Part shown: positions 1 to 57,480 of the stretch, one piece after another
Position numbering within the stretch: position 1 is the stretch's first letter
Layout: the number at the start of each line of letters is the position of its first letter
From: Escherichia phage dhabil
Direction: 5' to 3' (one strand)
Length of the DNA: 64,000 bases
Sequence record: MN850621.1
Made by a program: the position numbers and the translations under genes
Notes under the pieces: generated by a model
Seen by the model: only the letters and a program-made list of their open reading frames with translations
What the model was told of the DNA's origin: nothing
The model's database searches: none

Positions 1-709
1 TAGATTGAATTTCTTTACCTAATTCGTTAGTTGGTACTTTAATGGCCAGATTCTCAGTGAATTCTAATTTATTAAATTCACGATTGATTTCAGATTCTTC
101 ATGGGCCTTAGCCAGTTTCAATTTGTCACCGACATCAACTACAAAGTCTAGTTTACGTTCGGTCAAATAGACCATTGAATCCAGGTTATCAGCAAGGTCT
201 TCACCATAATTAGAACGGTCGAAACCTGTCCAGTTAGCCACCTGATACAAACCAACTACGCCACCACCAGTACCAATTTCACGTAAATATGGTTCTTCGA
301 ATGTAAAACGACAGTCGGTTCCATAGGTATAACAGTAGTCGTTACCCCATTCAACTTTATGACCGATAGGAATGATGTCACACCAGTTAAACAAGACATT
401 ATGGCCAATGATATCTTCGGCAATGCAATCGATAGCATGGGCCGAACCATTAGCAACATCAACGTTACGAATAGTGAATTTAGGCTTATCGCCAGTAATC
501 ATGTTAATGGATTTAATATAGCCTTTAACGAGGTCGTTAAATTTGCTGTGGATAACCAGAATAATTTCATCTGATTGGTTACTATACAAATCATACAAAT
601 GTTTTAATACAGTATGTTGTTTGTAGTTAACCAATACCTTCGGGATTTCGTTAGTAATTGGATACAACCGTGAGCCAAGACCTGCGCCTAAAATAACAAC
701 CTTTTTCAT
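1..709 (-). CDS. sugar-1-phosphate nucleotidyltransferase-like protein (3' end beyond window)
   Basis: ATG at 709-707 preceded by GAGGAA; N-terminus MKKVVILGAGLGSRLYPIT matches the G-x-G-x-R-L-x-P-x-T signature of RmlA/GlmU-type NTP transferases; later GSAHAID resembles the GTAHAV motif; no stop before window start. Confidence 0.5.
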   Translation of the reverse strand, partial: MKKVVILGAGLGSRLYPITNEIPKVLVNYKQHTVLKHLYDLYSNQSDEIILVIHSKFNDLVKGYIKSINMITGDKPKFTIRNVDVANGSAHAIDCIAEDIIGHNVLFNWCDIIPIGHKVEWGNDYCYTYGTDCRFTFEEPYLREIGTGGGVVGLYQVANWTGFDRSNYGEDLADNLDSMVYLTERKLDFVVDVGDKLKLAKAHEESEINREFNKLEFTENLAIKVPTNELGKEIQS

Positions 710-769
710 TATCTGTTCCTCAAGTGAATGTAGATACATTATACACTATTTTTAATAAATTTCTATTGC

Positions 770-1270
770 TTAAATCTTATCTTTACCGTATTCCATGCAC
801 TGTTCTACTGCAGCAGGCACTTTGGTCTTAAGCTTGTTGATTTGTTTCTTATAATCGCGCGCCTTATCGAAGCTCTCGGTTTCGAGCATTTCGTAATAAC
901 GGGCCTCGTGGACGGAAATCTGTAGATTGATATGGTTTACACACATCGCGTACAGTTTCTGCTTTTTGTACAAATCATCTTGGCGCTTCATTTCTGCCTG
1001 GTGTTTGGCTAGTACCGCTTCACGCTTAGACTCTTGTTCACGTTGGAATTCGATTTCCCTTTGAGCATATTTTGCACAGTTATTACCACATTGATTATTA
1101 GCTCGGGTATACACAAGTCCAGAACCAGCACGGAATTTCATTTCGCCGTCGAATTGTTTCTGTTCAGCTGCAATACGAGCTTTACCAACTTCATCAGCCG
1201 AAACTGCATCGCCGTATTGGACCGCGCAACCTGATAGGAGCATACTCATTGCGATAATTAACTTTTTCAT
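770..1270 (-). CDS. putative lipoprotein
   Basis: N-terminal signal peptide with lipobox LLSGC; SD GAGGA before ATG; position downstream of imm-like gene. Confidence 0.5.
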   Translation of the reverse strand: MKKLIIAMSMLLSGCAVQYGDAVSADEVGKARIAAEQKQFDGEMKFRAGSGLVYTRANNQCGNNCAKYAQREIEFQREQESKREAVLAKHQAEMKRQDDLYKKQKLYAMCVNHINLQISVHEARYYEMLETESFDKARDYKKQINKLKTKVPAAVEQCMEYGKDKI

Positions 1271-1411
1271 AATATCCTCAATTAAAACAGTTATACTTAA
1301 TTTGTGCTATAAGAATAATCCATCCCATGATTAATGTTGGAATCATTGGAGGAATTGCCACTGCCCAATAAATGGTAAAGGCAACCATTATAAGAAATAA
1401 AATAATTATCT

Positions 1412-1648
1412 TCATTGTTTAACGATAATGATTTGTGCGTTTGATTTACGTTCAGCGACGATAGCCCAGATTAAAGCCACTACCCAACCAATCATCGTCC
1501 ATCCTAACAGGAGATTAAGGAAGAAGATTCCGACATTGCTACGAGTGCCTCGCAGAAGAGCCAGAATCCATGGTAAAAAGTAACCAATGAACATAATAAC
1601 CAGAGAACCGAATCCTAAAACACCAGCACTAACGATTAAAGCTTCCAT
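1412..1648 (-). CDS. small two-helix membrane protein, positional equivalent of T4 imm
   Basis: 78 aa, two hydrophobic segments; immediately downstream of gene 43 as imm is in T4; early promoter cassette upstream. Confidence 0.45.
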   Translation of the reverse strand: MEALIVSAGVLGFGSLVIMFIGYFLPWILALLRGTRSNVGIFFLNLLLGWTMIGWVVALIWAIVAERKSNAQIIIVKQ

Positions 1649-1649: not shown

Positions 1650-1708
1650 ATAATTTCCTCATGTAGTTGATAGGAAGGATACTACCACGTTCCATGTGGT
1701 ATGTAAAC
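1650..1708 (-). promoter_or_regulatory. early sigma70-type promoter (degenerate cassette copy)
   Basis: Minus strand GTTTAC, 18 nt, TAGTAT, then SD and ATG of imm-like gene. Confidence 0.5.
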
Positions 1709-1710: not shown

Positions 1711-4422
1711 TTAAAAGTCAAACATGTCAAATAATGTTGCTTTTTTCTCGTAGTCGATTTTAGCAGACTCAGTAAAACCGGTCAGAGGTTTGATAAAGGT
1801 CTTTTGGAACAGTACATTGTAGTCCATCCAACGGAGGACTTGGTCACGAATCTGAATCGGAAGTTCAATACCTGACGGCCATGCCATACAAGCTTCACCG
1901 AACGGGTTGCCTTCTTTAAGTGGCAGTACATATACCTTTTCACCATCAACGATACGAGGCATAGTCAAATCACCGGCAGAAGCACGCATGTAAGCTAAGC
2001 AACCTTTGATGTGGTACGGACATTTAGAACCAGGGAAACCGCCTTCATTATATTTCTCGATGTTGTTAGCACTGGATACTGCAGCAATGCTTACATAGTC
2101 TAGTTCGTTAAATTCCTTATTAAACTGTTTGAAATATTCTTGCAAAGAGGCCTCGCCTTCTTGAAGCATACGTCGGATACATTCTTTCAGAGCTTTCTGA
2201 ACCGCTTTAGGTGTACTTGATTTCTGGGTTTCGAGACCCATGATTTTCAAGTGTGGTTCGGCATAGCGAGTACCTTCCATGTCCCAAACGTTCAGTGCAT
2301 AACGTTTCTTGCCTGTCCAGAATCCACCAAGACCTTTAGAACCAAGTGGAGGACCAGCGATAGCTTCTCGGTCCATGAACATCAAGTGCTGTTTATTGTT
2401 CATGTATTCACACATCTCACGGAAGCCTGCATCAATAGCTGGTTCCATACGTTCACGTGCAAATTTATCTAAGAAGTCGACCCAGTGGTTGGTATCACGG
2501 AATTTGTCTTCGCCTACTTTATTGATGATTGCATCGGCCTTAACATAAATGGAGTCGGTATCACCATAGAGCACGAACTTCTGGTTTTCAGTCTTGCACA
2601 CACCATTCAGATATTCGTTAACCTTACGTTCAATCCATTGGAGGGCCATTTGACCAAACAATGTTATTGCAGTTGCGTTCCTGAGGTCATAGTAACGGAA
2701 CCATACGTTACCAAGTGCACCATAAAGGGAGTTGATAAGCAATTTACGGTTAATCTGAGCAGTCATACCTGCGACTTCAGTACGTTCGGCTTTGAACAAC
2801 ATTTCTTTTAAAGAAGAGGCTGACAATTTTTTAATCTGGGCTTTGACTTCGTCAGAGAAGTCGAAACGATAATCAACATCCAATGGACTATCAACAGACA
2901 GATTAGGATTTTCTAATGCTTCTTTAATTAACTCACCATTACGTTGAGCTGCAAGCATATAACCTTTATGTTCTTTACGTTGTAAGAACACCTTCGTGAT
3001 TTCTGTAGGAATCACACCATCACGGTCTTTATAGTACATCATGCCGTTAGGAGAGCAACTGTAGGTGTCGCTAGGACGCGGAGCAGTTCCGGCAATATAT
3101 TCATGTATCGGCGCGTTTGCGAATGTCCCTGCGATGGTCTCTGGGCTTATATTCACTTGTCGAATGATACTCGGGTACAGAGATGTAAGGTCGAAACTCA
3201 TTACATATTTGTACGCGTTAGGAATAGGTTCCTTAACGAAAGCGCCTGGATAAGGTTGAACCGCATGCGATTTGGCCTGAGGAATAACTTTACCCTGTTC
3301 TTTAAGGCTATTAAAGATAATAGCGTCCCAAGTCTTAATTGGACTGAACACCGACTGAATCTGCATCTTGGCATAGTAACCCATGTCCAGACTAAGAAGA
3401 ATGAACTGGCGTTTCATATCAATCTGCACAACACGATATACGTCGATAATGTTATAGGAAATATATCGTTGGTGGTTCGTCTCACGTAACTTGGAGATAG
3501 GACCATCATATTTCAACTTACCTACTTTCAATTCATATTCAGAAACGTAATCCAGAGAATAAGAAGGCTGGTTAGTAAAGCTGAATTTTTTATAAAGGTC
3601 GATATAATCCAGAACAGAGATACCGAACAGTGTAATAATTTCGCGAGCGCCGTACATGTTCTCGATAACTTTAACACGAGTCTTACGATGCGGGCTTAAT
3701 CGCTTAGCAGTGTTCTCACCAAACAGATTTTTCAGACGGTTATAAACGTATGGCACGTCAAATGATTCAACGTTCCATCCAGTCAAAATCACAGGAGTTT
3801 TCTGTTGCCAGAAATTAAGATACTCAAGCATCATTTCTTCTTCAGAATTAAACGGAAGATAAACGATTTTGTCAATGATTTCCTGTGGAACTTCGTCACC
3901 ACCTTCGTCTTGGAGTTTCTCAGCGATTTTAATCGACCACTCTTCGACCGTACCATAAGGTGAAACTAAAAGGTCGAATACATAGAATTTATCATCAATC
4001 GAGTCGTAGTGAGTAATGGCATCGATAGGATGTTTAGCCTGGGCAGGTTCAGGGAATCCATCAGGAGATGTTACCTCGATGTCGAAGTTAGCAATACGAA
4101 TCTTAGAAGAATCATACTTGATTTCTTTACGATAGGTATCAGACAAATAGGCTAATTTATAGTCATCCATACCAAGGGCTTCGAGACCCATATCGTCCAT
4201 GCGCTTCATCCACTGAGAAGCATCGCGCATTGAATCGAATTCTTTCTTAACACAGCCCTTACCGTAGATGTCAATATATTTTACGGCTTGCTCTGGGTTA
4301 GCATGCATAAACATTGTAGGCTTGTAAGGAACTTCACGACTACGTTCGTTACCATTTTTATCGATGTAACGTTCGAGAATATTATCACCGATTTGTTCGA
4401 CTGTCAAATAGAATTCTTGCAT
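1711..4422 (-). CDS. 43: DNA polymerase (family B), gp43
   Basis: Motifs FDIEV (exo I), DLTSLYPSII (pol A), KLLINSLYGALG (pol B), YGDTDS (pol C); about 903 aa from ATG at 4422 (track ORF starts 20 codons upstream at a non-ATG codon); SD AAGGAAA. Confidence 0.97.
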   Translation of the reverse strand: MQEFYLTVEQIGDNILERYIDKNGNERSREVPYKPTMFMHANPEQAVKYIDIYGKGCVKKEFDSMRDASQWMKRMDDMGLEALGMDDYKLAYLSDTYRKEIKYDSSKIRIANFDIEVTSPDGFPEPAQAKHPIDAITHYDSIDDKFYVFDLLVSPYGTVEEWSIKIAEKLQDEGGDEVPQEIIDKIVYLPFNSEEEMMLEYLNFWQQKTPVILTGWNVESFDVPYVYNRLKNLFGENTAKRLSPHRKTRVKVIENMYGAREIITLFGISVLDYIDLYKKFSFTNQPSYSLDYVSEYELKVGKLKYDGPISKLRETNHQRYISYNIIDVYRVVQIDMKRQFILLSLDMGYYAKMQIQSVFSPIKTWDAIIFNSLKEQGKVIPQAKSHAVQPYPGAFVKEPIPNAYKYVMSFDLTSLYPSIIRQVNISPETIAGTFANAPIHEYIAGTAPRPSDTYSCSPNGMMYYKDRDGVIPTEITKVFLQRKEHKGYMLAAQRNGELIKEALENPNLSVDSPLDVDYRFDFSDEVKAQIKKLSASSLKEMLFKAERTEVAGMTAQINRKLLINSLYGALGNVWFRYYDLRNATAITLFGQMALQWIERKVNEYLNGVCKTENQKFVLYGDTDSIYVKADAIINKVGEDKFRDTNHWVDFLDKFARERMEPAIDAGFREMCEYMNNKQHLMFMDREAIAGPPLGSKGLGGFWTGKKRYALNVWDMEGTRYAEPHLKIMGLETQKSSTPKAVQKALKECIRRMLQEGEASLQEYFKQFNKEFNELDYVSIAAVSSANNIEKYNEGGFPGSKCPYHIKGCLAYMRASAGDLTMPRIVDGEKVYVLPLKEGNPFGEACMAWPSGIELPIQIRDQVLRWMDYNVLFQKTFIKPLTGFTESAKIDYEKKATLFDMFDF

Positions 4423-4480
4423 TTCATTTCCTTTATAGACGAGTGATTGTCTTTTGTTTGTTGATGAATCATTATACTCC

Positions 4481-4503
4481 AAAAAAGGGACCGAAGTCCC
4501 TTT
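4481..4503 (-). terminator. intrinsic terminator (TTCG loop) upstream of gene 43 leader
   Basis: Minus GGGAC-TTCG-GTCCC followed by TTTTTT; then GGAGTATAAT and gene 43 SD. Confidence 0.6.
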
Positions 4504-10202: not shown

Positions 10203-11221
10203 CGTGTAACCTCATTATAAAGTTGTGCAGCCATAGTCTTAAGGGCTTTAACATCGGCTTCAGTGTGGCCATCAGGAAGGGCGTCGATATAATCATACAT
10301 CATATCCAAGAGAGATTTAACTTCATCTTCCTCTTCAGAATCATCGATATAAACACTATTATCTACCTTAGACACAATACGTAAAGAGTGAACAACCTTT
10401 TCAAGCTCTGATTCGAACTTAGTAAGGCCATCATCAATTTTATCGACTATAACACGAACTGCGATATTTGTAAAATCTTTGTAATCGATAGTCGCGTTAG
10501 GGTAATGAATCTTACGATGCCAACAGGTTTCATTAATGATGAAATCCATTTTATGAGTTTCGGTATCAAAAATCCAGAAACCACGGGGGTCGTTCTCATC
10601 ACCTGCAGTCAGGGTCCATGGAGTACCAATGTACTTAACGTTTGCTGCATCAGAAATAGTGTGGAAGTGACCAGACCAAACTTGCTTATACTTTTTAAGG
10701 AAATCAGGTTCTAAACCATGGGATTTCATTCCTTTATAGAAATAGAAACCATTTAATTCCCAATGACCAATACAGAAATCTGCTGTGGTATTTTTGATAT
10801 GGTCCATGATATCGGTCGTGTTTTCTTCACACATCCATGGAATCAAATCAATTTCGGTGCCATCAAAGTTAACCGTAGTAGGTTTTTCAATAACCTTGAT
10901 ATGGTCATATTTACCCAGAACTTCAGAAGCAGCATTAGGAGTTAAGGTATTTTTGTAGTGCATATCATGATTACCAACAACAGTATACATGGTAATGCCA
11001 TTAGCTTTAAGCAAATCAGAGATTTCGCGAGCGAATTCCATACACTTATGGGTAATTGCTTTACGAACGTCAAAGATATCACCATACTGAATCCATACAG
11101 TAATACCATTTGCTTTAGAATAATTGATGGCGTCTTTAATGCCCGACAATTGAATGTTTTGCACCCAAGGGTCGTCGTTCTTAACTCCAAGGTGCCAGTC
11201 ACCTGTGTTTAATATTTTCAT
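10199..11221 (-). CDS. 47: recombination nuclease subunit gp47 (Mre11/SbcD-like)
   Basis: 340 aa; phosphoesterase motifs GDWHLG, GDIFD, GNHD, GHWE; T4 gp47-like. Confidence 0.93.
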   Translation of the reverse strand: MKILNTGDWHLGVKNDDPWVQNIQLSGIKDAINYSKANGITVWIQYGDIFDVRKAITHKCMEFAREISDLLKANGITMYTVVGNHDMHYKNTLTPNAASEVLGKYDHIKVIEKPTTVNFDGTEIDLIPWMCEENTTDIMDHIKNTTADFCIGHWELNGFYFYKGMKSHGLEPDFLKKYKQVWSGHFHTISDAANVKYIGTPWTLTAGDENDPRGFWIFDTETHKMDFIINETCWHRKIHYPNATIDYKDFTNIAVRVIVDKIDDGLTKFESELEKVVHSLRIVSKVDNSVYIDDSEEEDEVKSLLDMMYDYIDALPDGHTEADVKALKTMAAQLYNEVTR

Positions 11222-11267
11222 AATATCCTCGCTTAATTAAACCTATTTTATCATCCATTCAGAAAGC

Positions 11268-11290
11268 AAAAAAGGAGCCTAAGCTCCTTT
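11268..11290 (-). terminator. intrinsic terminator upstream of gene 47
   Basis: Minus GGAGC-TTAG-GCTCC followed by TTTTTT. Confidence 0.55.
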
Positions 11291-11694
11291 ACCAATTAAT
11301 ACGCCATACAGAGGTTCATGAGAAGACCTGAACTTGATTTTCTTATAAGTAATAGTACCTTCATTTTCCGCTTTAATACGAGCAGCTTCAAATTTAAGTA
11401 TCATCTCATTTTTGTCAGATTTAATCTTATCAAAATCCATCGAATTCGTCATTCATAAAACCTCTTAAAAATCAGGATGTTCGTCTTTCATTAGCCACCT
11501 GTCCATGTTATCATCGTTGCCACCATTTCTTAAGTTGGTGCGAATCCACCCAAACCTTGGCTACAGGCTCAATCCGAAAAATTTCATCGGAATATTGCCC
11601 AACCATTTTATATTCGGTTTCAGTCTGCTTAATACAAATATTACCGTATGAGCGAAGTCTGAAGGCGGCTCCAATAAGAAGCCGTTTAAAGGGT

Positions 11695-12006
11695 TTATTT
11701 ACTAGCGCCATTGATAATTTCCCAAATCTGTTTACGCGTAGTTTCCCACATAACTCTAACGATTTCGTCAGTAGTTGGTTGACGGTAAATACCACGTAAT
11801 TTAATTATAGCATATTTGTAAGCTTCGAAATTGTTTTCGAGAACAGCGCCCTGAGCATGTGTATTAAGACGCTTAATTTCACGGGCATTCTTTTTAAGAA
11901 TTTTGGCAGCTTGAGAAGCGGCTTCTTTAGCATTATTCTCTTCTAAACGCTTCTGGGCTTCTTCAATTTGCTCTTCGGTCAATTGAGAAATGTCGGTGCT
12001 TTGCAT
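11695..12006 (-). CDS. hypothetical protein
   Basis: 103 aa ORF, charged/helical. Confidence 0.45.
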   Translation of the reverse strand: MQSTDISQLTEEQIEEAQKRLEENNAKEAASQAAKILKKNAREIKRLNTHAQGAVLENNFEAYKYAIIKLRGIYRQPTTDEIVRVMWETTRKQIWEIINGASK

Positions 12007-16055: not shown

Positions 16056-16529
16056 TCATTTAAGCGATTTCCTCAGTTGTTTTTTAAATGAATCAACCAT
16101 TTGTTTTTTGGTATCAGATTCATTATAAGTCATTCCGTGTGAAAGCATTTCAGCAATCATTTCTTCCTTACCTAATCTACTGAACTCTTTGGTTTTATCA
16201 GGAACGAAATTAGGATGGATATTGTTTTCGGTATAATCAGCTTTTAGATAGACCAGCAAATTCTCTAACCATTCGAGGTAGTCAACGTTTTGACCTTTAA
16301 GACCAGAACGGTTGAACTTATGCTTCATTTGTCCTTCTGCAGCATTGCACAGGTTACATAGTAAACCACGAACCTTACCGGCTTTTGGCCCGTTCAATTC
16401 ATGGTCGTGGTCAAGGTGGTTACTTTGAACATCAGGGTTTAATTCACGTTTACAAATCAAACACTTACCATGTTGTGCATCATAAAGTTTTTGTTTTTCT
16501 TCTTTGTATAGTTTGCCAGTCAACAACAT
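16056..16529 (-). CDS. 49: endonuclease VII (Holliday junction resolvase) gp49
   Basis: 157 aa; MLLTGKLYKEEKQKLYDAQHGKCLICKRELNPDVQSNHLDHDHELNGPKAGKVRGLLCNLCNAAEG is near-identical to T4 endo VII as I recall it. Confidence 0.96.
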   Translation of the reverse strand: MLLTGKLYKEEKQKLYDAQHGKCLICKRELNPDVQSNHLDHDHELNGPKAGKVRGLLCNLCNAAEGQMKHKFNRSGLKGQNVDYLEWLENLLVYLKADYTENNIHPNFVPDKTKEFSRLGKEEMIAEMLSHGMTYNESDTKKQMVDSFKKQLRKSLK

Positions 16530-17030
16530 AATAAACCCTTACCATTATTAGATAAGGGTATTTATTAAACGTTATAAAATGAGCGATGCAACCTTTTAAA
16601 TTGACGAATCATCTTTTTGGTAGGACGGGTATATAATCCTACACAAGTGGCCATAAACTGGTCAGTAGGACTTCCTTTGATAAGAAGTTTCCAGACCTTG
16701 TCACCATTTAACTTTTCGGTATAGACTAATTTAGTTTTCATCAGAAGACCTCGTCAGAAAAGCGGAGTTGCGCTTCAAGCCAATGGATATAATCGGCTGC
16801 AGCTTTAATCAAATCAGACTCTAGGTCAGGTAAAGAACCCGAATCCGATAACTCGTAAAGCGAATGTTCAATCAGACGGCCTTTATGACGGCCAATTTCA
16901 ATTTTGGTACTCATATCCAAACTCCATATCGATTAAATCATTGTTTGAAGGTTCATTATACTCTATTTCGGAATCGTTGTAAACCGGTTCCTCTGGCTCG
17001 GTAGTTTCCCACCGAGCGACATACCACGGC

Positions 17031-17339
17031 TTAACGGTCACACCACCAACTACTTACTTCAAAATCAGGCTCGCCGTTTTCCCAATACCAAGGGCCAACC
17101 GGATGCCAATCACCATGCTCATCTTCTTCAAATTCTTCGGATTCGAGCCCGACGTATTGCCATTGAACTTCATAAGCAGTGCCACCAATTACAACAGTAT
17201 TCTCACCATACGGATTAGCCACAGCAAAGTCAATACCTTCTGCTTTAGCCAACCAAACCATGTATTCATAGAGTTTATATTCTAGGTCGTCTTCGGTGCC
17301 ATCACCTAGAAAAATGGTTTGTTCGTTTAACCCAATCAT
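17031..17339 (-). CDS. hypothetical acidic protein
   Basis: 102 aa ORF. Confidence 0.45.
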   Translation of the reverse strand: MIGLNEQTIFLGDGTEDDLEYKLYEYMVWLAKAEGIDFAVANPYGENTVVIGGTAYEVQWQYVGLESEEFEEDEHGDWHPVGPWYWENGEPDFEVSSWWCDR

Positions 17340-17508
17340 AATTCCACCATAAATTCAAATAACTGGTCGCGTACACAAGTATCAGTCCAACCCCATTCGT
17401 TGGCTTCTTCTTTTAACCAATCCGGGAGATTTGCTAATACGGTTTCTTTACTAGGGGCAGGAGTATCAAACTCTCCTGCACAGGTTTTATAGGCCATATC
17501 AAATTTGG

Positions 17509-17772
17509 TCATTTGAAATACGCCCGCAGTTGGTCAAAGCCACCAATAGAAGTTCCATCAGGAGCAAATACCTGAGGCATAGTCAAACCTACTTGAGATT
17601 CACGACCAAGAGCAGTCAAGAGTTCAGCAATCTTCTCATCATCAAATACACCTTTTTCCGGCATCACGTTAATGAATTCGTAAGGTTGTTTCTTAACATC
17701 AAGTAGACGTTTGGCATTATCACAGAAAACACAACGGTGAATATTTGAATCGTAACCATAAACTTTAAACAT
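17509..17772 (-). CDS. nrdC: thioredoxin/glutaredoxin NrdC
   Basis: 87 aa; CVFC redox motif; sequence closely resembles T4 NrdC. Confidence 0.9.
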   Translation of the reverse strand: MFKVYGYDSNIHRCVFCDNAKRLLDVKKQPYEFINVMPEKGVFDDEKIAELLTALGRESQVGLTMPQVFAPDGTSIGGFDQLRAYFK

Positions 17773-17773
17773 T

Positions 17774-18010
17774 TTAAATTCCTAATACTTGTTTGAATGC
17801 TTCAGAACGGTCAAGTTCTGTTCCATATTTTTCGAGGTGTTCGTATTTTAAATCATAAACATCAGATAGTATATTATTATACGAACGAGTTAAAGCAGAT
17901 TTCAATACTGAATAACTGTCCGGGAATTTACCATGCTCTTTATAATAAGCCAAAGTAAGTTCGCGAACCGCCTTATCGGCGGCCTCTACATATTCTTTAC
18001 GCTTTGCCAT
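17774..18010 (-). CDS. hypothetical protein
   Basis: ORF downstream of nrdC; start set to ATG (MAKRKEY); track start is TTG. Confidence 0.45.
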
Positions 18011-18218
18011 TTTCGTCTCGCTCAAATTTGTGCTTACAATGACGGCATTTATACTGAAGCGGATTATGACGCCATTGAATCAACTGGACCTGTTCAGTTC
18101 CACATTCAGGACAATTTGGAACATTCTTAGAAGCTCGTTCGCGACGTTCGACAATTTTAATAATTTGATTCCAATCAGGAATAGTTTGGTCGATATCATC
18201 GGCTAATTGATATTTCAT
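17997..18218 (-). CDS. zinc-ribbon protein
   Basis: 73 aa; CPECG…CRHC four-cysteine pattern. Confidence 0.45.
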
Positions 18219-19225
18219 TTCAACAGCTCCAGAGCTTGTTCAAGACGGTCTAAACGATTGGTAGACTCTTCCCAAAGTTTCTTGGCAGCGGTATATTGGC
18301 CAGTCAGTTTTTTGTTAATAGCAAGGGCATCTTTATACGCTTTTTCTAAGGCAACGATTTCCGGTAACTTGGATTTAGTAATTGGTGTAGGAGCCATGAT
18401 AGGGCTATTCAAGTCATTAATCAAGTCTTCTAATGTAGCAGGCTCTTTATCGGTGTTCACAATTTCCTCACATTTTTCTTGGTAAATTTCAGCATCGGTT
18501 TTTGGAACAGGACATTTGATTTCGCGGACTTTTACTAAGACCTCGTATCCTTTCCAGCCATAGAAATGTTTTACTTCTTGAGTCTCATATTTCTCTACTG
18601 TATCCATAAAAGCTAAGGCTTGTTCGATAATATTCAAGGTGTCGTAAGCAATATCTTGATACTTTACAACTTCCGCGTCATCTTTAGGTTTCCTATTAGG
18701 TGACCAAATAACAGAAATAATAGCTTTTCCTTTATAACTATTTGTTTTAATCATGCAATTAGCCATAGGGTGAATAGTACGGGAATCACCAGAAACTATG
18801 GTTTTAGAGGCCGCTTTGAGAATTAATGCAGAGTTAGCCTTAAATTCGCTAGTCCAACGCTGTGGAAATAGACCACTAGGATCCATACCTTTCATTTTGA
18901 TATAGCTTTTTAAAACATCACCAAACCATTGGTAGCTAACAACGTGGCTGGAACCTGGGTGTTTCTCTTTGCCAAACTCTGAAAGGATATCCTTATTAAC
19001 CAGCCGCGAAAGCAGTCGAGAACCTTTAAATGTATCTATGATATCAGGGATAAACAAACGCCCTGCAATCTTTTCTATTTCAGATTTAAAATACAGCGAC
19101 AAATCTTCGTCAATTTGGTCTACCCATTTATTGATATTAGAAACTATCACCTCATATGGGGTTAATGGAGGGGTATTGTCAGTGATATACGTAGTAAAGG
19201 CATTGATGTATTCAGTACGGGTCAT
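18215..19225 (-). CDS. hypothetical protein (C-terminal coiled coil)
   Basis: 337 aa from ATG at 19225 (MTRTEY); SD GAGGAG; promoter cassette upstream. Confidence 0.55.
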   Translation of the reverse strand: MTRTEYINAFTTYITDNTPPLTPYEVIVSNINKWVDQIDEDLSLYFKSEIEKIAGRLFIPDIIDTFKGSRLLSRLVNKDILSEFGKEKHPGSSHVVSYQWFGDVLKSYIKMKGMDPSGLFPQRWTSEFKANSALILKAASKTIVSGDSRTIHPMANCMIKTNSYKGKAIISVIWSPNRKPKDDAEVVKYQDIAYDTLNIIEQALAFMDTVEKYETQEVKHFYGWKGYEVLVKVREIKCPVPKTDAEIYQEKCEEIVNTDKEPATLEDLINDLNSPIMAPTPITKSKLPEIVALEKAYKDALAINKKLTGQYTAAKKLWEESTNRLDRLEQALELLK

Positions 19226-19231
19226 GATATT

Positions 19232-19283
19232 CTCCTCAGTAGTTGATAAAAGGATTATACTCCATCCGTCCTTGGATGTAAAC
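19232..19283 (-). promoter_or_regulatory. early promoter cassette (degenerate)
   Basis: GTTTAC -35 directly after upstream stop; TTGATA core; SD GAGGAG and ATG at 19225. Confidence 0.5.
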
Positions 19284-19284
19284 A

Positions 19285-20178
19285 TTATTTTAGAGCTAAT
19301 AGTGCCGCGCGAAGCTTGTCACGCTGGTTTTCCATATTCTTGATGCGATTAAGAACGTCTTGAATACTCTTTTTCTCATCTTCAATCTGGCCATTTAAAC
19401 GATGGATTGATTCCTGGATGCTATCTGCATAATAGGTCTCAATAGGTTTCATCGTAGGGTTAGTAACAACCAAAGAATTATCGGGTTTAATTTTCCAATG
19501 ATACGGTTCGGAATTGAATGGACTGGGCACCGCGGTGGTTTTGAATTTGTCATAGGCTGCATACTGGCCTACGCTGTCACATGATACTGCAGAGATACGA
19601 CGTTCCATTTGTGGGTCCTTTTGTTGGGATTGATAAGGGGCATAAGATAAAAGATATTCGCGAGTTAGTTTAACTCTTATATACACTGCATCGGCTTGCC
19701 CTGAACAATCGGCATATTCATCGGTTGTAACTTTATACGATTCTACTGCCTTAATACGGGTCATTGCTTCCCTAAATAAGGTTTCGAATGCTTCACGAAG
19801 GGCCTTATTACCTTTTGAGGTAGGACGGAAACGAACTTGGATACCGTCAGCCAGAATATTAATGACCAGGTTACGAGCCGTAAAATTAATATTCTTGATA
19901 TTAACAGGAACCGTAGAAATACGTCCTGCGGTAGCCAAGAGGTCTTTGATATTAGCTCGTAATGTTGCACCAAACAGGTGGGCTGGGCGACGGCAATAAT
20001 CGTTCAAAGAAGAAATATAAGTTCCTTTACGACCTACGCCATAAGTATAATTACCATTACAAATATGACCAAAGTCAGCTAGCCGATCGATAGCGATACG
20101 ACGAGTCGTGTCATGGTCGTATATAGAGTATTCTTTACGTGTTTTAATATTCATATTAAAGTCCAAATAATTTTTCAT
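19285..20178 (-). CDS. hypothetical protein (C-terminal coiled coil)
   Basis: 297 aa ORF. Confidence 0.55.
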   Translation of the reverse strand: MKNYLDFNMNIKTRKEYSIYDHDTTRRIAIDRLADFGHICNGNYTYGVGRKGTYISSLNDYCRRPAHLFGATLRANIKDLLATAGRISTVPVNIKNINFTARNLVINILADGIQVRFRPTSKGNKALREAFETLFREAMTRIKAVESYKVTTDEYADCSGQADAVYIRVKLTREYLLSYAPYQSQQKDPQMERRISAVSCDSVGQYAAYDKFKTTAVPSPFNSEPYHWKIKPDNSLVVTNPTMKPIETYYADSIQESIHRLNGQIEDEKKSIQDVLNRIKNMENQRDKLRAALLALK

Positions 20179-20371
20179 AGAATTTAGCGATAGGCCAAAA
20201 CACCATCATAATGACCAAAACAACCCAAAGTAGGGGCCATACTAGTGTAATGAATACTGCATCATAGCTTGATTCAATTTCGATTGGATTCCAATCACCT
20301 GATTTATGAATGATAAAGGTCGTCATAAATCCTAGCACAAAGTAAAGGAGAATAAAACCTAAGATTTCCAT
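20156..20371 (-). CDS. hypothetical membrane protein
   Basis: 71 aa, two hydrophobic helices. Confidence 0.45.
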   Translation of the reverse strand: MEILGFILLYFVLGFMTTFIIHKSGDWNPIEIESSYDAVFITLVWPLLWVVLVIMMVFWPIAKFYEKLFGL

Positions 20372-20455
20372 ATTAACCTATAATGTTTGAGAAAATTAGC
20401 CACAGAACACCCGTGGCTACGATTACATATCCAAGAACAGCGAGCCATTCCATAA

Positions 20456-21301
20456 TTAATCCTTAAGAAGATTTAGGATATCGATATATTTCCGGCGTTC
20501 AGCCTTAGCTTTGGCATTCAGACCAGAGAGTCGGAAAATCTCATCATCTTGTTGTTGGATTGTAACATTCAAGCAAGTAAGCAAATTGCTAAAATACTCA
20601 ATCTGGGCTTGATGTTTCTCATTGCTGCGCACTGGTACAGGTTCCATTTTAGGAGCTTGTTCTGAATGCTCTTCAGCCAGGTCTTTAATTTTATAAAGTT
20701 TAATACGTTGGCCTACTCCAGTTTCAGCATCACCAAAACTAAGAACACCGTGTTGTTCTAATTCAGACAGGGCCAAGCGCAGATGGAACTTCCAGTTGTC
20801 ATATTGACAACCACTAAAAGTTGAAATGGTATACTCATTTTCATTTCCAGGGTGGTTAACAATATTAAAGATAATCCAATCACCTGAACCGTTAGTCTTA
20901 AATGTCATTTGTTTATCAAGACCTTTTGCAAGTCGAGCGCCAAGAGCCAGTAGACGTCGTTGGTTGGCATGAAGGTCTTGAACAACTTCACCAAATGACA
21001 TCGCCGGGATTAAACGACCATAAAGGTCGTAGCCTTTGTTATAATTTTTAAGAATAATTTTGGCATTAGCACGAGACAACATACCTGTTTTACGAAGAGT
21101 TTTCATGACCCGGTCTTCTAACGTAAACGAACCTTTAGTCTTGTCAAAGATTTTAATAAAGTCATCTTTAACAGTACAAACATTGAACTTGTCCCACATC
21201 ATATATAGGACCTTTTCAACCACTTCTTTAGAACTAGGAATACGACCAAATTTAACAACTTTTTTAACTTCAGAACGAATTTGATTAATTGCTTGTGACA
21301 T
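20456..21301 (-). CDS. hypothetical protein
   Basis: 281 aa; shares MSQAI N-terminus and leader with gene at 13607-13936. Confidence 0.55.
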   Translation of the reverse strand: MSQAINQIRSEVKKVVKFGRIPSSKEVVEKVLYMMWDKFNVCTVKDDFIKIFDKTKGSFTLEDRVMKTLRKTGMLSRANAKIILKNYNKGYDLYGRLIPAMSFGEVVQDLHANQRRLLALGARLAKGLDKQMTFKTNGSGDWIIFNIVNHPGNENEYTISTFSGCQYDNWKFHLRLALSELEQHGVLSFGDAETGVGQRIKLYKIKDLAEEHSEQAPKMEPVPVRSNEKHQAQIEYFSNLLTCLNVTIQQQDDEIFRLSGLNAKAKAERRKYIDILNLLKD

Positions 21302-21364
21302 AATAATTTCCTCAGTAAGTAATTAAGAACCTAGAACCATTATACCATCCTTGGTATAAAGCGT

Positions 21365-21889
21365 TTATGCGAGAACCGTCTTTAAACGCTCTTCAAATTT
21401 CTGAAGCAGAGCTTGGCGTTCAGCTCGTTGTGATTTGTACTGCTCGATACGACCTGAAGTGAGGGCGTACTGTTCGTTTACTGATTCCCGCATAAATTCA
21501 GGAATCTCTTTACAAGCTTTGATTTCGTCAAACTTATCAATAACCGCTTGTTGTTCGGCAATTAAGTTATCAAAATAAGCGATATCTGATTTAACGTTTG
21601 CCAGGTCAGATTCAGTAGGCATTAAACGTTTATTACGCTCAGCTTGATAAGCTTGGTTGGTTTCACGACTCCAGTGAAGAGTACGTTTTTTGTTGGTGTT
21701 TTTGTAGAGCTCTACAATACCAACTGAATCGATGACAGCAATCCAGTTCCAACGGCTTTTGTAAATCTCTCCTCCAGATACGGTAATCTCATTACCACAA
21801 GCAACGTCATTAAAGAACTTGCTTTGTTTTTCGGATTTGAAATTACCATTGTTAAAATTAATCAGTGAAAAAATATCTTTAGCGTTCAT
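21365..21889 (-). CDS. hypothetical protein
   Basis: 174 aa ORF; promoter cassette upstream. Confidence 0.5.
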   Translation of the reverse strand: MNAKDIFSLINFNNGNFKSEKQSKFFNDVACGNEITVSGGEIYKSRWNWIAVIDSVGIVELYKNTNKKRTLHWSRETNQAYQAERNKRLMPTESDLANVKSDIAYFDNLIAEQQAVIDKFDEIKACKEIPEFMRESVNEQYALTSGRIEQYKSQRAERQALLQKFEERLKTVLA

Positions 21890-21895
21890 GATAAC

Positions 21896-21944
21896 CTCCA
21901 GTAGTTGATAGGTCTATAGTATCATTTCTACTGGAGATGTAAAC
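21896..21944 (-). promoter_or_regulatory. early promoter cassette (canonical copy)
   Basis: Minus GTTTAC, 17 nt, TGATACTAT, AGACCTATCAA; flanked by 9-bp inverted repeat CTCCAGTAG/CTACTGGAG. Confidence 0.65.
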
Positions 21945-21946
21945 AA

Positions 21947-22288
21947 CTAATAAAAACTTTTTTCACCGGCTTGTCCACTAAACCATGCGGATTGGGTGTT
22001 CTCTTTCCGTTGATGTTTAATACGAATAAGGTATTCATTCCTGATGGCACAGAGTTCATCTCTGAAGTCGCCTGCCAACTTAACCTGCTTACGGTCTAGA
22101 TTTATTAAGGCTTGGGTCTTCGCTGCCAAGAGCAGTCTCTTGTAGTCTCCTTCTTCACAATCGGTTTTGTAAACCTTCTCAGCGAATTGGTGTTTAAATT
22201 CATTATCATAGTCTTCAATAGACTGTTTCATGGCATTAGAGTATTTCAACTCTGCTTTTATAAGGTCATAACTAAATTGTTCGAACAT
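21947..22288 (-). CDS. hypothetical protein
   Basis: 113 aa ORF. Confidence 0.45.
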   Translation of the reverse strand: MFEQFSYDLIKAELKYSNAMKQSIEDYDNEFKHQFAEKVYKTDCEEGDYKRLLLAAKTQALINLDRKQVKLAGDFRDELCAIRNEYLIRIKHQRKENTQSAWFSGQAGEKSFY

Positions 22289-22298
22289 AATTTCACCT

Positions 22299-23279
22299 TT
22301 ATTTCAGAAGTGTAACTTCAGCGATTTCGCTCCAGTCATTTTTATCGGTGGCAATGAAGTCCGCCAGGTAAAGAGCCGTGCGTAATGATACGTTACGAAG
22401 ACGAGATACATTGGCCTTCATCCATGCTAGAGCTTGATAAGTCTCAGCATCAGTCAGACCTCGGTTTTGCATCATATCAGTGGACAGGATAACGTCTTCA
22501 ACACGAACCATAATCTCTTCATTCGAGTGAACTCCGAGGTCTAAGTAAACCGAACGAGATACTAAAGCCTGGAGGTGTGGAGCAAGTTTAGTTCCACGCT
22601 CTAATTCACGGTCAATGTCAACGTTGGTGATGAACACGATGGTGCCTTCGTATTCGAATTCTTTATCGATATTTTTATCATCGAGATAAGAACTTGAAGT
22701 GCTCCAGCACACCTTACGTTTCTCACCGGTATCCAATGCGGCTTTAAGAAGGTTCAGGATATCCATGTCAGAGAATACATCAACATCATCAATAAGAAGA
22801 ACACTATTAGGGCCGCGGTTATTCCAAAGCTGCTCGTAAAGACCGATTCCACTAATCTTTCCGTTGATTGATTTATATTCGATAGTTTCATTTTCGTGGG
22901 CATTTTGTAATGCTTTATCTAAAGAGTAGGTTTTACCAATACCTGCGGCACCAGAGATGATAAGGGAACGAATTTTACCATCGATGATTCCGTTAGTCAT
23001 CATGTTCATTACTTTAAAACGTTTGTTGATGCGATGTTTCATTTCTTCAGAGGATTCGGTAACCATTACAGGAGCTTCAGCACCTTCCATTTCAACGTCA
23101 CATTTGAACACCCACACACCACGTTCAACACCATCAATCTGTACGAATACCTTGCCATCACCGAGGTGAGCTTCAGATTCATGAATTTTATTAGGGAACC
23201 AGGTTTTACCTGAACTCATGAACGTACCAGAGATTTCATTACCGCGATAGATACCTTTGTTGATTTTGATAGTTAACAT
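22299..23279 (-). CDS. P-loop NTPase (AAA-like)
   Basis: Walker A SGAAGIGKT and Walker B VLLIDDVD; start set to ATG (MLTIKINKG) after promoter cassette. Confidence 0.55.
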   Translation of the reverse strand: MLTIKINKGIYRGNEISGTFMSSGKTWFPNKIHESEAHLGDGKVFVQIDGVERGVWVFKCDVEMEGAEAPVMVTESSEEMKHRINKRFKVMNMMTNGIIDGKIRSLIISGAAGIGKTYSLDKALQNAHENETIEYKSINGKISGIGLYEQLWNNRGPNSVLLIDDVDVFSDMDILNLLKAALDTGEKRKVCWSTSSSYLDDKNIDKEFEYEGTIVFITNVDIDRELERGTKLAPHLQALVSRSVYLDLGVHSNEEIMVRVEDVILSTDMMQNRGLTDAETYQALAWMKANVSRLRNVSLRTALYLADFIATDKNDWSEIAEVTLLK

Positions 23280-23289
23280 TATATTCTCC

Positions 23290-23345
23290 GTTTCACTCAG
23301 TAGATTTGATAGGTCCATAATAACATGCTCTACGAGAGGGTAAAC
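23290..23345 (-). promoter_or_regulatory. early promoter cassette (variant)
   Basis: TTTACC -35, TTATTAT -10 region, core GGACCTATCAA; precedes ATPase gene. Confidence 0.5.
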
Positions 23346-23364
23346 TCTTTTTTGCACTAAACCC

Positions 23365-23386
23365 AAAAAAGGACCCCGAAGGGTCC
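23365..23386 (-). terminator. intrinsic terminator (TTCG loop)
   Basis: Minus GGACCC-TTCG-GGGTCC followed by TTTTTT, then promoter cassette. Confidence 0.6.
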
Positions 23387-23581
23387 TAAATTGCGCTCCA
23401 ATAATTATGGAAGCGGATATTATTGATAGCCCAGTTAATACACCGTCTTATCTGCTTAGACGTAGGCTTGCATACGTACTTGAAATTGATTCGTCTACCG
23501 GTTTCTCTACAAACTACTTCAAGATACCAACGACAGGTTTTATGAGGTCTTCCATATGACAGGAAAACCTTGATTTCTTCT

Positions 23582-24592
23582 TTAGCGGTAATAAGAGTTG
23601 TGGTTGTCAAGATACACCTCTTCGACGAACTTGTCCCAGAACTTCATGTCCACCTTCTCAGGTATACCGTTCTTATGAGCTTGTACAGCCAGGACTTCAA
23701 CTTCATCAACAATGTTTTCTAGCAGCCCTTGGACCACTTTAAAAGGCATATCACCTGCTTTTATTGCTTTAATAATAGAAGCATTTTTAAGTGGATAAAC
23801 CAAATCGCCTGTTTGATAGATTTCCTTCAACTGATATCCAGCACGATAAGCGTGGCTCAGAGCTTTCCAGTCAATACCTTCATTGGCTTCGGCCTTACGA
23901 GCACGTTCACCATATTCGGCATCAAGTTTATTCAGAGATTGCTTGAGCTCGATTAATGACAAAGTAGTTTGGTATTTACGACCGAGGACGGTATAGAACG
24001 TTTGAGGACCTGTTTTCTCGTGGTTATGAAATACCCATTCACAGAACTCATTTTCAGGGAGCCGGTGCTTAATATCTTCTACCTTAGTACGTCGTTGCTT
24101 AGTAGAACCATCTTCTTGATAATCAACCCACTGTTCAGGAATCTGGTTAACAATTGCCAGTACACCACGTAAAGCAGCCAGTCGAGAACCCTTAACACCA
24201 TATTTAGAAGCTTGCTTACGGACGTACCCTAAATAGGCTTTCATGTTGGTTGTATAGAAACGCGAACGGTTATCTTGGATAAATTTCCATACATCAGGTA
24301 AATCAGATTTAACCACCATTTCAGGCGGAGTGTGGAGCATATCCAGAGCAACGGTTTCGCCTTCAGCAGCCAGTTTAAAGAAATATTTCAGACTGTAAAG
24401 CTCATGGTCAACATCATCTTTAGTGTTTTTGGAAGCAGTGTTATTCGTGTTCAGGTTGGTATGGTTCATTGCCGTACCTAACAGAATATCACGCGGATGT
24501 GGAACAAAGATTTCTTTAAAATCGACATCAGATTCCGGAGTACTTGTTCCATAAAGGTGGCTACCGAAGTAGCCTTTCATAACTGTTCTCAT
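23582..24592 (-). CDS. nucleotidyltransferase-fold protein (Pol-beta superfamily)
   Basis: N-terminal GSHLYGTSTPESDVD fits the G[SG]-x(9-13)-D-x-[DE] motif; 336 aa. Confidence 0.5.
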   Translation of the reverse strand: MRTVMKGYFGSHLYGTSTPESDVDFKEIFVPHPRDILLGTAMNHTNLNTNNTASKNTKDDVDHELYSLKYFFKLAAEGETVALDMLHTPPEMVVKSDLPDVWKFIQDNRSRFYTTNMKAYLGYVRKQASKYGVKGSRLAALRGVLAIVNQIPEQWVDYQEDGSTKQRRTKVEDIKHRLPENEFCEWVFHNHEKTGPQTFYTVLGRKYQTTLSLIELKQSLNKLDAEYGERARKAEANEGIDWKALSHAYRAGYQLKEIYQTGDLVYPLKNASIIKAIKAGDMPFKVVQGLLENIVDEVEVLAVQAHKNGIPEKVDMKFWDKFVEEVYLDNHNSYYR

Positions 24593-25041
24593 TTCTTAGC
24601 CTCAAAATGGATTACCGGACACATCTTAGATTTACGAGCTTTAATATATTGAATGAAAACATTTTCTTTAATTTCCTTTCCTTCACGTTTAGCTTTAATG
24701 CGTTCCCATTCTTTTTCTTCTTTACGTAAATCGTACCGGGCCCATAAATTCATTAGACCATACACCAAACCAAAAGCTACCGCTAGAATAAGGGCTATTA
24801 TAATCAGTCCTAAAATAAAACCTAAACTTAAACCAACAGGAGTACTCAATACAAAGAACTGCTCCAATATACCGGCACCTGCAACAGTTAAGCCGAAAAT
24901 AGTACTACCTGCAAGCACAGAACACATAAAGCACACCCAAACCATTTTCCAGAAGTATGCGCATAATGATCGCGGACGCGAATAACTGGCATAAAAGCGG
25001 TCATGTAATTTAACATGCCAAGAGTTTTCATTGATAATCAT
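24589..25041 (-). CDS. hypothetical membrane protein
   Basis: 150 aa; two to three hydrophobic helices, Gly-rich. Confidence 0.45.
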   Translation of the reverse strand: MIINENSWHVKLHDRFYASYSRPRSLCAYFWKMVWVCFMCSVLAGSTIFGLTVAGAGILEQFFVLSTPVGLSLGFILGLIIIALILAVAFGLVYGLMNLWARYDLRKEEKEWERIKAKREGKEIKENVFIQYIKARKSKMCPVIHFEAKK

Positions 25042-25050
25042 AATATTTCC

Positions 25051-25611
25051 TTAAGAGTTCATAGTTGGGATAACAGAGTTCAGATAAGATACTAAAACTT
25101 TTAGCTCGTCCTTCGTAAATACAACTTCATTTTCACCGTCGTGTCTTTGGACCAAGGATAGCAAATCACGGCCCTGGTGTTGATACACGGTTAGTTCGGT
25201 ATCATAATCCATTTCTTCTTCATCACCTTCAAATGTTTCACTAGAACGAATTACGGCATCTTGACCAGGGACTTTCCATTCAACTTCCGGCTTGCATTCT
25301 TCCTGGAACAGTTTAAAAATACATTTAAAGAAATTACTAGAATCGCTAATGCTCAGACATTCTCCGTCTGTTTCCAAATTAAACCCTTTGTCATGGTTAT
25401 AAATCTGGGCCCATAAACCATCATTAATATCAAATACACCTCTAAATCTGCCATTAAGATATTCGTGTTTGTCCAAAACCTTTAAATCATAAAGCGGCTT
25501 GATATCTTGGATAGTCAGTACGATTTTATCGTCTTCTTGTGAAAGCACAATTGCATTATCAACTACTTCAGCAGTCAGGTCACCAAACAGCCCAGATGTT
25601 TCAATAATCAT
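25051..25611 (-). CDS. hypothetical acidic protein
   Basis: 186 aa ORF. Confidence 0.45.
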   Translation of the reverse strand: MIIETSGLFGDLTAEVVDNAIVLSQEDDKIVLTIQDIKPLYDLKVLDKHEYLNGRFRGVFDINDGLWAQIYNHDKGFNLETDGECLSISDSSNFFKCIFKLFQEECKPEVEWKVPGQDAVIRSSETFEGDEEEMDYDTELTVYQHQGRDLLSLVQRHDGENEVVFTKDELKVLVSYLNSVIPTMNS

Positions 25612-25621
25612 TTTCCGTTCC

Positions 25622-25804
25622 TCATTTCACATTTTGTTTAATAAAATTTAGCAATTCTTTAAGGGCTTTATCTTCTTCTTTAGAAAGCCTAGTACAATCA
25701 TCAACCGAGTAATGGTGACAAAATGCTGTTTCGAATCTGGCAACTGTACCAGCATAGGCCTCGATAAGCTCTTCAAGCTTTAAGTGCTTTTCTTTGGTTT
25801 TCAT
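25622..25804 (-). CDS. hypothetical protein
   Basis: 60 aa ORF. Confidence 0.35.
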   Translation of the reverse strand: MKTKEKHLKLEELIEAYAGTVARFETAFCHHYSVDDCTRLSKEEDKALKELLNFIKQNVK

Positions 25805-25807
25805 AAA

Positions 25808-26092
25808 TCACCGGTTATGTTTTAAAATACTATAAAGCTCTTCGACTTGGCTTGCATCCAGATAAATGACCTCGTCATCTTGTTCCAGGACAATTCCGCC
25901 TTTAATAAGATTCCACTCTACCACTTCAACAGTCATATCATCACCTGAACCTGCTAATGTTTCAGGTTTCAAAACAATAACACCATCTTCAGAATTACCA
26001 CTCGGGTCGTATAACATTACAGTTTCCTCGCTAACCGTGAAAAGAATAAACCTATTAAAACTGGACCAATAAGCATTGTAAGCCAAGCCCAA
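25808..26092 (-). CDS. hypothetical protein
   Basis: 94 aa ORF; start uncertain. Confidence 0.4.
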   Translation of the reverse strand: MGLAYNAYWSSFNRFILFTVSEETVMLYDPSGNSEDGVIVLKPETLAGSGDDMTVEVVEWNLIKGGIVLEQDDEVIYLDASQVEELYSILKHNR

Positions 26093-26108
26093 GGTTCAAG
26101 ATAGTAAA

Positions 26109-26366
26109 TCATCTCATGCTCCTATGCCAACAGTTACGTGGCTCACGTTTAAAAATTTCATCATGCATTGACTGACAACCTACACAGTATATCACACCCT
26201 TAATAGCTTGACGTCGTGCTTCAGGAATCTCTTCATCACAATCAAAACAATATTTAGCCGATTCACGTTCAACTGCTACTTGCTTACGGGCGTGTACTAT
26301 AGCGGCCTGTACGACCGCTTCCATTTCGAGCTGTTCGGCCCCGTCCTTAGCAAATCCAACGGCCAC
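26109..26366 (-). CDS. DksA/TraR-type C4 zinc-finger protein
   Basis: CFDCDEEIP…CVGCQ pattern typical of TraR/DksA C4 fingers; GTG start in track. Confidence 0.5.
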   Translation of the reverse strand: MAVGFAKDGAEQLEMEAVVQAAIVHARKQVAVERESAKYCFDCDEEIPEARRQAIKGVIYCVGCQSMHDEIFKREPRNCWHRSMR

Positions 26367-26548: not shown

Positions 26549-26561
26549 AATATTTTCCTCA

Positions 26562-26792: not shown

Positions 26793-26800
26793 TTTATTCT

Positions 26801-26849: not shown

Positions 26850-26857
26850 ACTAAAAC

Positions 26858-26887: not shown

Positions 26888-26889
26888 GA

Positions 26890-57479: not shown

Positions 57480-57480
57480 T

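Follow-up and report, generated by a model that had tools for sequence, protein, structure and literature searches.

The open reading frame that runs off the start of the window, a stretch of 64,000 nucleotides from Escherichia phage dhabil (MN850621.1), very probably encodes the N-terminal domain of the Dhakavirus orthologue of AfhE and RB69 gp53:52, a two-domain enzyme serving the arabinosyl-5-hydroxycytosine pathway of DNA modification. The domain architecture, conserved catalytic motifs, orthology, and synteny of this protein are established here, while its substrates and the order of the reactions are taken from the literature. The enzyme family, the pathway, and their presence in Dhakaviruses are already known from work published from 2018 to 2026: Thomas et al. 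noted a full-length homologue in the Dhakavirus IME08 in 2018 (PMC6024577), and comparative genomics counts Dhakaviruses among the clades with a syntenic cluster (PMC13326640). Which restriction, CRISPR, and type IV defences a therapeutic coliphage escapes depends on hypermodified cytosine, and phage-therapy work uses Dhakaviruses (JS98, IME08, CLB_P2).

The nucleotidyltransferase/kinase at the window edge

The window holds the 5′ part of the gene (1..709, minus strand), which amounts to codons 1-236 of 557 and covers the whole N-terminal nucleotidyltransferase domain, reaching ~20 residues into the kinase domain. The ATG start codon lies at 709-707, an AGGA is found ~8 nt upstream of it, and the frame remains open for 236 codons up to the window edge. 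The N-terminus reads MKKVVILGAGLGSRLYPIT, in which the earlier note had recognized the start of a sugar-1-phosphate nucleotidyltransferase, and the profile matches of the 236-codon fragment agree. These are Pfam NTP_transferase (PF00483; 36.1 bits with a gathering cut-off of 21.2, residues 3-100) and phrog_4098 (6e-109), a PHROG of unknown function. A PF00483 score above the cut-off and a phrog_4098 match of this strength mean that the window-edge frame is not a chance ORF, and since the latter match covers profile positions 1-240 of 559 and stops there, more than half of the protein is missing from the window. The domain is that of a sugar-1-phosphate nucleotidyltransferase and, as had been argued, not a dCMP hydroxymethylase.

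The full gene and its downstream neighbours were read from phage dhaeg (MN850609), to which positions 1-1700 of the window are 100% identical; the remainder of the gene lies beyond the window, at 11036-12000 of the dhaeg locus L001. Dhaeg is a Dhakavirus of the JS98 group, and the same 1,700 positions are 94-98% identical to about 50 relatives. The product, dhaeg_214, is a protein of 557 aa that GenBank annotates as “hypothetical protein”. At full length it is still a nucleotidyltransferase, and it gains a C-terminal sugar kinase domain that was beyond the view of the earlier note: PF00483 is matched at residues 3-100 and APH (PF01636) at residues 346-417, the latter with 26 bits (cut-off 23.2) and in a kinase domain that falls outside the window.

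Motif conservation was judged over an alignment of 55 homologues extending down to 30% identity. In the nucleotidyltransferase half, the signature GxGxRLxP...PK is invariant, and the invariant residues are G10, R14, L15, P17, P23, K24, D111, and D192-x-G194-D195-x-x-K198. In the kinase half, they are K224, E238, H374-G-D376-x-x-x-S380-N381, and D394. The catalytic loop of the dhaeg_214 kinase half, H374-G-D376-P-H-Y-S-N381, is of the HxDxxxxN type, with D394 as the downstream metal-binding aspartate.

An AF2 model built on a 99%-identical cluster representative of dhaeg_214 has a pLDDT of 93.9 and a pTM of 0.89. Foldseek searches against the PDB match its N-terminal half to RmlA, HddC, MurU (4y7t), the inositol-phosphate cytidylyltransferase IPCT, and LicC (1jyk), and its C-terminal half to the APH(2'') structures 3tdv, 3ham, and 6ctz. 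The same structural templates are given for RB69 gp52:53 (PMC13326640, Table 1). The gene had previously been called RmlA/GlmU-type, a label that holds at the level of the fold, where RmlA is among the Foldseek matches, but not at that of the family, where the NCBIfam equivalogs score below their cut-offs (TIGR01208 rmlA_long, 21.2 vs 320; TIGR01173 glmU, 21.8 vs 367). Dhaeg_214 shares with RmlA and GlmU the Rossmann-like nucleotidyltransferase fold and the GxGxRxxPxT...K signature, while it lacks both the left-handed beta-helix acetyltransferase domain and the RmlA tetramerisation region and has a kinase domain instead. A PDB sequence search with the full protein returned weak matches to the N-terminal loop alone (LicC, HddC, and RmlA; E ~1e-3) and no AfhE structure.

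The bacterial pairs AmgK/MurU and LicA/LicC also couple an APH-family kinase, specific for a sugar or for choline, with a minimal nucleotidyltransferase that follows it, and their folds, that of choline kinase included, match those of the phage protein. In contrast to dhaeg_214, these are separate proteins that act on MurNAc or choline, and the sequence similarity is confined to the nucleotide-binding loop (E ~1e-3). The substrate of the phage kinase would, in addition, already be 5-phosphorylated, so that a phosphatase step is needed. Metagenomic proteins of ~920-946 aa combine HAD, SIS isomerase, and nucleotidyltransferase/kinase in a single chain. These fusions connect the enzyme with both a phosphatase and a sugar-phosphate isomerase, by a route that does not depend on phage synteny.

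The cassette between gene 43 and uvsX

The gene 43 DNA polymerase (1711..4422, minus strand) bounds the variable 43-uvsX region on its upstream side, and the order downstream is dhaeg_214, 215, 216, 217, 218, and then uvsX. Dhaeg_214 is collinear with RB69 gp53:52 over its full length; its N-terminal part aligns with gp53 (44%, E 3e-55) and its C-terminal part with gp52 (41%, E 3e-78). RB69 gp53/gp52, and likewise gp47/gp46, represent one gene each, split by sequencing errors (PMC6024577; PMC13326640). Deleting the C reported at 29116 in order to repair the gp53/gp52 frameshift leaves one internal stop, although the resulting protein has 99% identity to the representative of the Mosigvirus cluster and the identity matrix does not change. 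The other members of the cassette are dhaeg_215, a 127-aa HAD phosphatase (62% to RB69 gp51); dhaeg_216, a 178-aa P-loop nucleotide kinase (38% to gp45); dhaeg_217, a 232-aa thymidylate-synthase homologue (80% to gp48); and dhaeg_218, a protein of 297 aa without a Pfam match (70% and 65% to gp47 and gp46, respectively).

Dhaeg_217 is encoded at 9425-10123 of L001, outside the window, and bears on the T4 positions that had been compared with this locus. The window-edge gene, which was said to sit where T4 has imm.1/gene 42, is indeed not gene 42, but the phage does possess a gene 42 homologue, namely that for dhaeg_217, three genes further downstream. At the position of ThyA Asp169, dhaeg_217 and RB69 gp48 have the sequence RSQN, E. 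coli ThyA has RSCD, and T4 gp42, to which dhaeg_217 is only 24.5% identical, has RSND. The D169N substitution is diagnostic of 5-hydroxy-dCMP synthases (PMC13326640). The acceptor base is probably not hydroxymethylcytosine but 5-hydroxycytosine, made by this nearby RSQN-bearing homologue.

RB69 DNA contains mono- and di-arabinosylated 5-hydroxycytosine, and gp48 makes 5-hydroxy-dCMP (PMC13326640). The same source assigns gp52:53 as a kinase and UDP-arabinofuranose pyrophosphorylase by analogy with HY126 AfhE, and gp51 as an AfhF-type phosphatase that converts arabinose-1,5-bisphosphate to arabinose-1-phosphate (PMC13326640). The AfhE activities, arabinose-5-phosphate 1-kinase and the formation of UDP-arabinofuranose from arabinose-1-phosphate and UTP, are known for HY126 AfhE only, as described second-hand in PMC13326640. 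The dhaeg system resembles those of RB69 (ORF53_52c) and HY126 in placing the nucleotidyltransferase ahead of the APH-like kinase in a chain of 557 aa (561 in the known system), in the partners of the enzyme (HAD phosphatase, 5-hydroxy-dCMP synthase, DNA arabinosyltransferase, and nucleotide kinase), and in the genomic slot between gene 43 and uvsX. It differs in that the identity to the RB69 enzyme is only 41-44%, the comparison with HY126 AfhE being one of description and not of sequence. Unlike RB69, dhaeg has its nucleotide kinase gene between those for the phosphatase and the synthase, a rearranged order, and has imm, a small ORF, and a lipoprotein gene between gene 43 and the enzyme.

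Homologues of dhaeg_214 are present in phages with measured arabinosyl- or pentosyl-5-hydroxycytosine, namely Serratia phage 92A1 (47-50% identity at 100% coverage) and Shewanella phage Thanatos-1 (TH1_060, 43-46% identical). Of the enzymes compared from T4-like phages, those of the dhaeg/Marfa branch stand furthest apart, with 44-50% identity to the other clades vs 47-73% among those others, so that their sugar or nucleotide specificity may differ. In Shigella phage SP18, a Gaprivervirus and thus of the sister genus, all five cassette genes are absent as one block, which indicates that the nucleotidyltransferase comes and goes with the DNA-modification genes. TH1_060 is essential for Thanatos propagation; the purified protein shows no activity with xylose-1-phosphate, while a syntenic 300-aa “transferase” of the same phage has UDP-xylose pyrophosphorylase activity in vitro (PMC12838424). 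Given these in vitro results, the assignment of enzyme roles within the cassette is not fully settled.

Absences were searched for in the rebuilt full dhaeg genome of 170,817 bp, with RB69 and T4 proteins. A tblastn search of this genome with the T4 a-gt and b-gt proteins gave no match, and the interval from gene 47 to gene 55 (window ~11.2-12.2 kb), in which the earlier note had seen no glucosyltransferase, indeed encodes small DUF proteins only. The T4 system of gene 42 and alpha- and beta-glucosyltransferases is found at the same place in the genome and works on the same principle, in that a thymidylate-synthase-family enzyme modifies dCMP and a UDP-sugar then serves as donor for glycosylation of the DNA. 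T4, however, takes UDP-glucose from the host and needs no sugar-activating enzyme, and its base is hydroxymethylcytosine, whereas that of dhaeg, which has no a-gt/b-gt homologue, is predicted to be hydroxycytosine. [quoted passage not shown] The isomerase is likewise missing from the Marfa locus. The second arabinosyltransferase gp3, distal in RB69, the U32-like gp50, gp49, and imm.1 have no homologue in the dhaeg genome.

Proposed route to arabinosyl-5-hydroxycytosine and competing readings

By analogy with the published systems, the C-terminal APH-like kinase domain would phosphorylate D-arabinofuranose-5-phosphate at C1, and the HAD phosphatase dhaeg_215 would remove the 5-phosphate. The N-terminal nucleotidyltransferase domain, which lies within the window, would then join arabinofuranose-1-phosphate and UTP to give UDP-arabinofuranose. 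In parallel, dhaeg_217 would hydroxylate dCMP to 5-hydroxy-dCMP, which kinases including dhaeg_216 may raise to the triphosphate for incorporation into DNA by gp43. Dhaeg_218, the single glycosyltransferase, would place arabinose on the 5-hydroxyl group, and the predicted end product is arabinosyl-5-hydroxycytosine DNA, resistant to restriction and CRISPR nucleases. Of the roles that the earlier note had entertained for an NDP-sugar, feeding a non-glucose DNA modification is the most likely one, as judged from the RB69-type cassette.

Two gene absences shape the details of this proposed route. E. coli makes arabinose-5-phosphate itself via KdsD and GutQ, which can supply the compound, so that a phage isomerase is probably dispensable; as dhaeg has none, we infer from its gene content that arabinose-5-phosphate is drawn from these host enzymes. 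Dhaeg also has no second transferase, and Thanatos, whose single arabinosyltransferase goes with mono-arabinosylated DNA, suggests by analogy that dhaeg DNA would carry mainly one arabinose per cytosine, i.e., mono-arabinosylated 5-hydroxycytosine. The prediction of mono-arabinosylated 5-hydroxycytosine dependent on host arabinose-5-phosphate is apparently new to measurement: a literature search for nucleoside analysis or measured DNA modification of a Dhakavirus or JS98 found none. The practical gain is in annotation, as new names can be given to five genes of dhaeg and its relatives that are labelled “hypothetical” or wrongly: “capsule biosynthesis protein” becomes the phosphatase and “putative thymidylate synthase” the 5-hydroxy-dCMP synthase.

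The Dhakavirus/Marfavirus enzyme could instead act on a different phosphosugar or rely on a different nucleotide carrier, in which case the DNA would bear a non-arabinofuranose, as yet undescribed glycoform of 5-hydroxycytosine. Related phages do build other sugars on this base, e.g., RL38J1 (PMC13326640), making it a platform for diverse sugars. The nucleotidyltransferase/kinase also diverges much more from RB69 (41-44%) than its cassette partners do (62-80%), identity between its branch and every other clade is 44-50%, and no phage isomerase supplies arabinose-5-phosphate. The last point loses force with the host route through KdsD/GutQ and with an isomerase-less layout that is common to Marfa. 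The enzyme, moreover, retains all catalytic and most nearly invariant positions, and two of its partners are closer to those of RB69: the donor-accepting glycosyltransferase is 65-70% identical to gp47:46 and the phosphatase 62% to gp51. A different sugar or carrier is, on balance, unlikely, and UDP-arabinofuranose remains the preferred product.

A link between the NDP-sugar and the cell envelope, by which the enzyme would contribute to superinfection exclusion together with the lipoprotein and Imm, is highly improbable. The proposal, also raised in the earlier note, draws on adjacency, as imm, the small ORF, the lipoprotein gene, and the nucleotidyltransferase gene form one co-directional run, and on the weak resemblance of the HAD partner dhaeg_215 to capsule-biosynthesis phosphatases (TIGR01689, 55 bits vs a cut-off of 162). 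Against it stands SP18, which retains the trio of imm, small ORF, and lipoprotein while the nucleotidyltransferase and its four partners are absent as a block. In RB69 and Marfa, conversely, the cassette includes the enzyme, and no lipoprotein gene adjoins it; the occurrence of the enzyme follows that of the 5-hydroxy-dCMP synthase and the DNA glycosyltransferase, and the nearby genes encode neither a membrane glycosyltransferase nor a flippase. Least probable of all is that dhaeg_214 has no function, being a decayed gene or a wrongly called ORF, in favour of which one can cite its GenBank label of “hypothetical protein”. The frame of 557 codons is unbroken and shows 98-100% conservation in no fewer than 50 Dhakavirus genomes, the catalytic residues of both domains are invariant, the fold is predicted with confidence (pLDDT 93.9), and the Thanatos homologue is essential (PMC12838424). 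An active enzyme of the arabinosyl-5-hydroxycytosine pathway is thus retained as the reading of the window-edge gene.

Imm, a small ORF, and a lipoprotein upstream of the enzyme

As had been noted, a lipoprotein gene and an imm-like gene adjoin the nucleotidyltransferase gene. Dhaeg_213 (770..1270, minus strand) encodes a predicted lipoprotein of unknown function with 166 aa that belongs to phrog_1754. Its signal peptide ends in a canonical lipobox of the form L-[AS]-[GA]-C, LLSG-C15 (MKKLIIAMSMLLSG-C15), which is invariant in 12 homologues and has Ala at +2, and lipidation is predicted. An invariant QCGNNC motif is also present, and the C-terminal half is helical. The AF2 model has a mean pLDDT of 68, with values <50 for residues 1-41, and is poor over the conserved N-terminal half. 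Searches of dhaeg_213 against Pfam, NCBIfam, and PADLOC gave nothing significant. Homologues occur in Dhakavirus and Gaprivervirus, with weak ones in T4-like phages of Serratia, Edwardsiella, and Enterobacter, and none was found in the RB69 record at 2,000-34,000 or the T4 record at 23,000-42,000.

In Marfa, the cassette directly follows gene 43 and the lipoprotein is lacking, while the SP18 locus runs 43, imm, small ORF, lipoprotein homologue, and uvsX. Since SP18 keeps imm, the small ORF, and the lipoprotein without the cassette, the lipoprotein goes with imm and not with the sugar enzyme, and a role for it as a partner in the sugar pathway was rejected on this comparison. Its position beside imm is compatible with an envelope role.

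Two promoter-like sites, both on the minus strand and both consensus matches only, flank this run. The sigma-70-like match at 738..765 (TAGAAA, 16 nt, TATAAT; 10/12) lies within the 60 bp that separate the stop codon of the lipoprotein gene from the ATG of the nucleotidyltransferase gene, and that at 1679..1707 (TTTACA, 17 nt, TAGTAT, with a TG before it) lies between gene 43 and imm. The promoter scan yielded 9 sites in the region vs 6.2 +/- 2.4 in shuffles, so the sites are not enriched and the matches are only suggestive.

The gene imm (1412..1648, minus strand) encodes a superinfection immunity membrane protein of 78 aa that matches PF14373 (5e-18) and is 43% identical to T4 Imm. Its stop codon overlaps (ATGA) the ATG of the small hydrophobic ORF (1278..1415, minus strand; 45 aa; phrog_3610, 9e-22), which is unannotated in MN850609 and has as its relatives RB69p054 (56%), SP18_gp046, and an unannotated 49-aa ORF in T4.

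Distribution and fusion of the proposed modification genes

The proposed cytosine-modification cassette of Escherichia phage dhaeg (dhaeg_214-218), taken as a whole five-gene unit, is a clean presence/absence polymorphism among close relatives. In Shigella phage SP18, which belongs to the sister genus Gaprivervirus, imm is followed by a small ORF, the lipoprotein gene, and then directly by uvsX (positions 6608-7590 of L010, the SP18 record region 16217-30633). This SP18 locus contains no thymidylate-synthase homologue, no sugar enzymes, and no glycosyltransferase.

Three metagenomic homologues of dhaeg_214 (P0067, P0081, and P0097; 922-946 aa) have a fused domain architecture. A domain scan of P0067 and P0097 identifies an HAD phosphatase, an SIS isomerase, and a nucleotidyltransferase in one chain, with a C-terminal remainder that aligns with the kinase half of dhaeg_214; the domain set of P0081, taken from a precomputed domain list, is identical. 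This architecture suggests that the entire route from ribulose-5-phosphate to an NDP-pentose resides in one polypeptide outside the T4-like phages.

Annotation of the cassette and of gene 43

The GenBank product names of dhaeg_215 and dhaeg_217 in MN850609 are misleading. Both genes lie outside the window, in the dhaeg record region L001. dhaeg_215 (L001 10653-11036), named “capsule biosynthesis protein”, is an HAD sugar-bisphosphate phosphatase with 62% identity to RB69 gp51, itself named “phosphoheptose isomerase” in RefSeq. dhaeg_217 (L001 9425-10123), named “putative thymidylate synthase”, bears the 5-hydroxy-dCMP synthase signature.

For gene 43, the mechanically called ORF (window 1711-4482, minus strand) opens with TTG and encodes 923 aa. 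The GenBank CDS has its start 60 nt downstream, at window 4422, and encodes 903 aa; this annotated start is more likely to be correct.

Small proteins and neighbors of imm and hoc

A 45-aa hydrophobic ORF (phrog_3610; window 1278-1415, minus strand), absent from the MN850609 annotation, begins with an ATG that overlaps the imm stop codon (ATGA). It is conserved in RB69 (RB69p054, L007 27824-27934) and SP18 (SP18_gp046, L010 6847-6990) at 52-56% identity. The T4 counterpart is an unannotated 49-aa ORF (L013 3228-3377) within the imm-42 “intercistronic” region, with the same ATGA overlap with imm as in dhaeg. The product resembles a small membrane protein whose translation is coupled to that of Imm.

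Outside the window, the 501-aa “hypothetical protein” dhaeg_81 (L009 6512-8017; dhaeg record 56011-57516) adjoins the hoc genes. Its sequence combines collagen triple-helix repeats (8.6e-24) with two carbohydrate-binding modules of the CBM5/12 type (1.9e-9), and the protein may serve in capsid decoration or adhesion.
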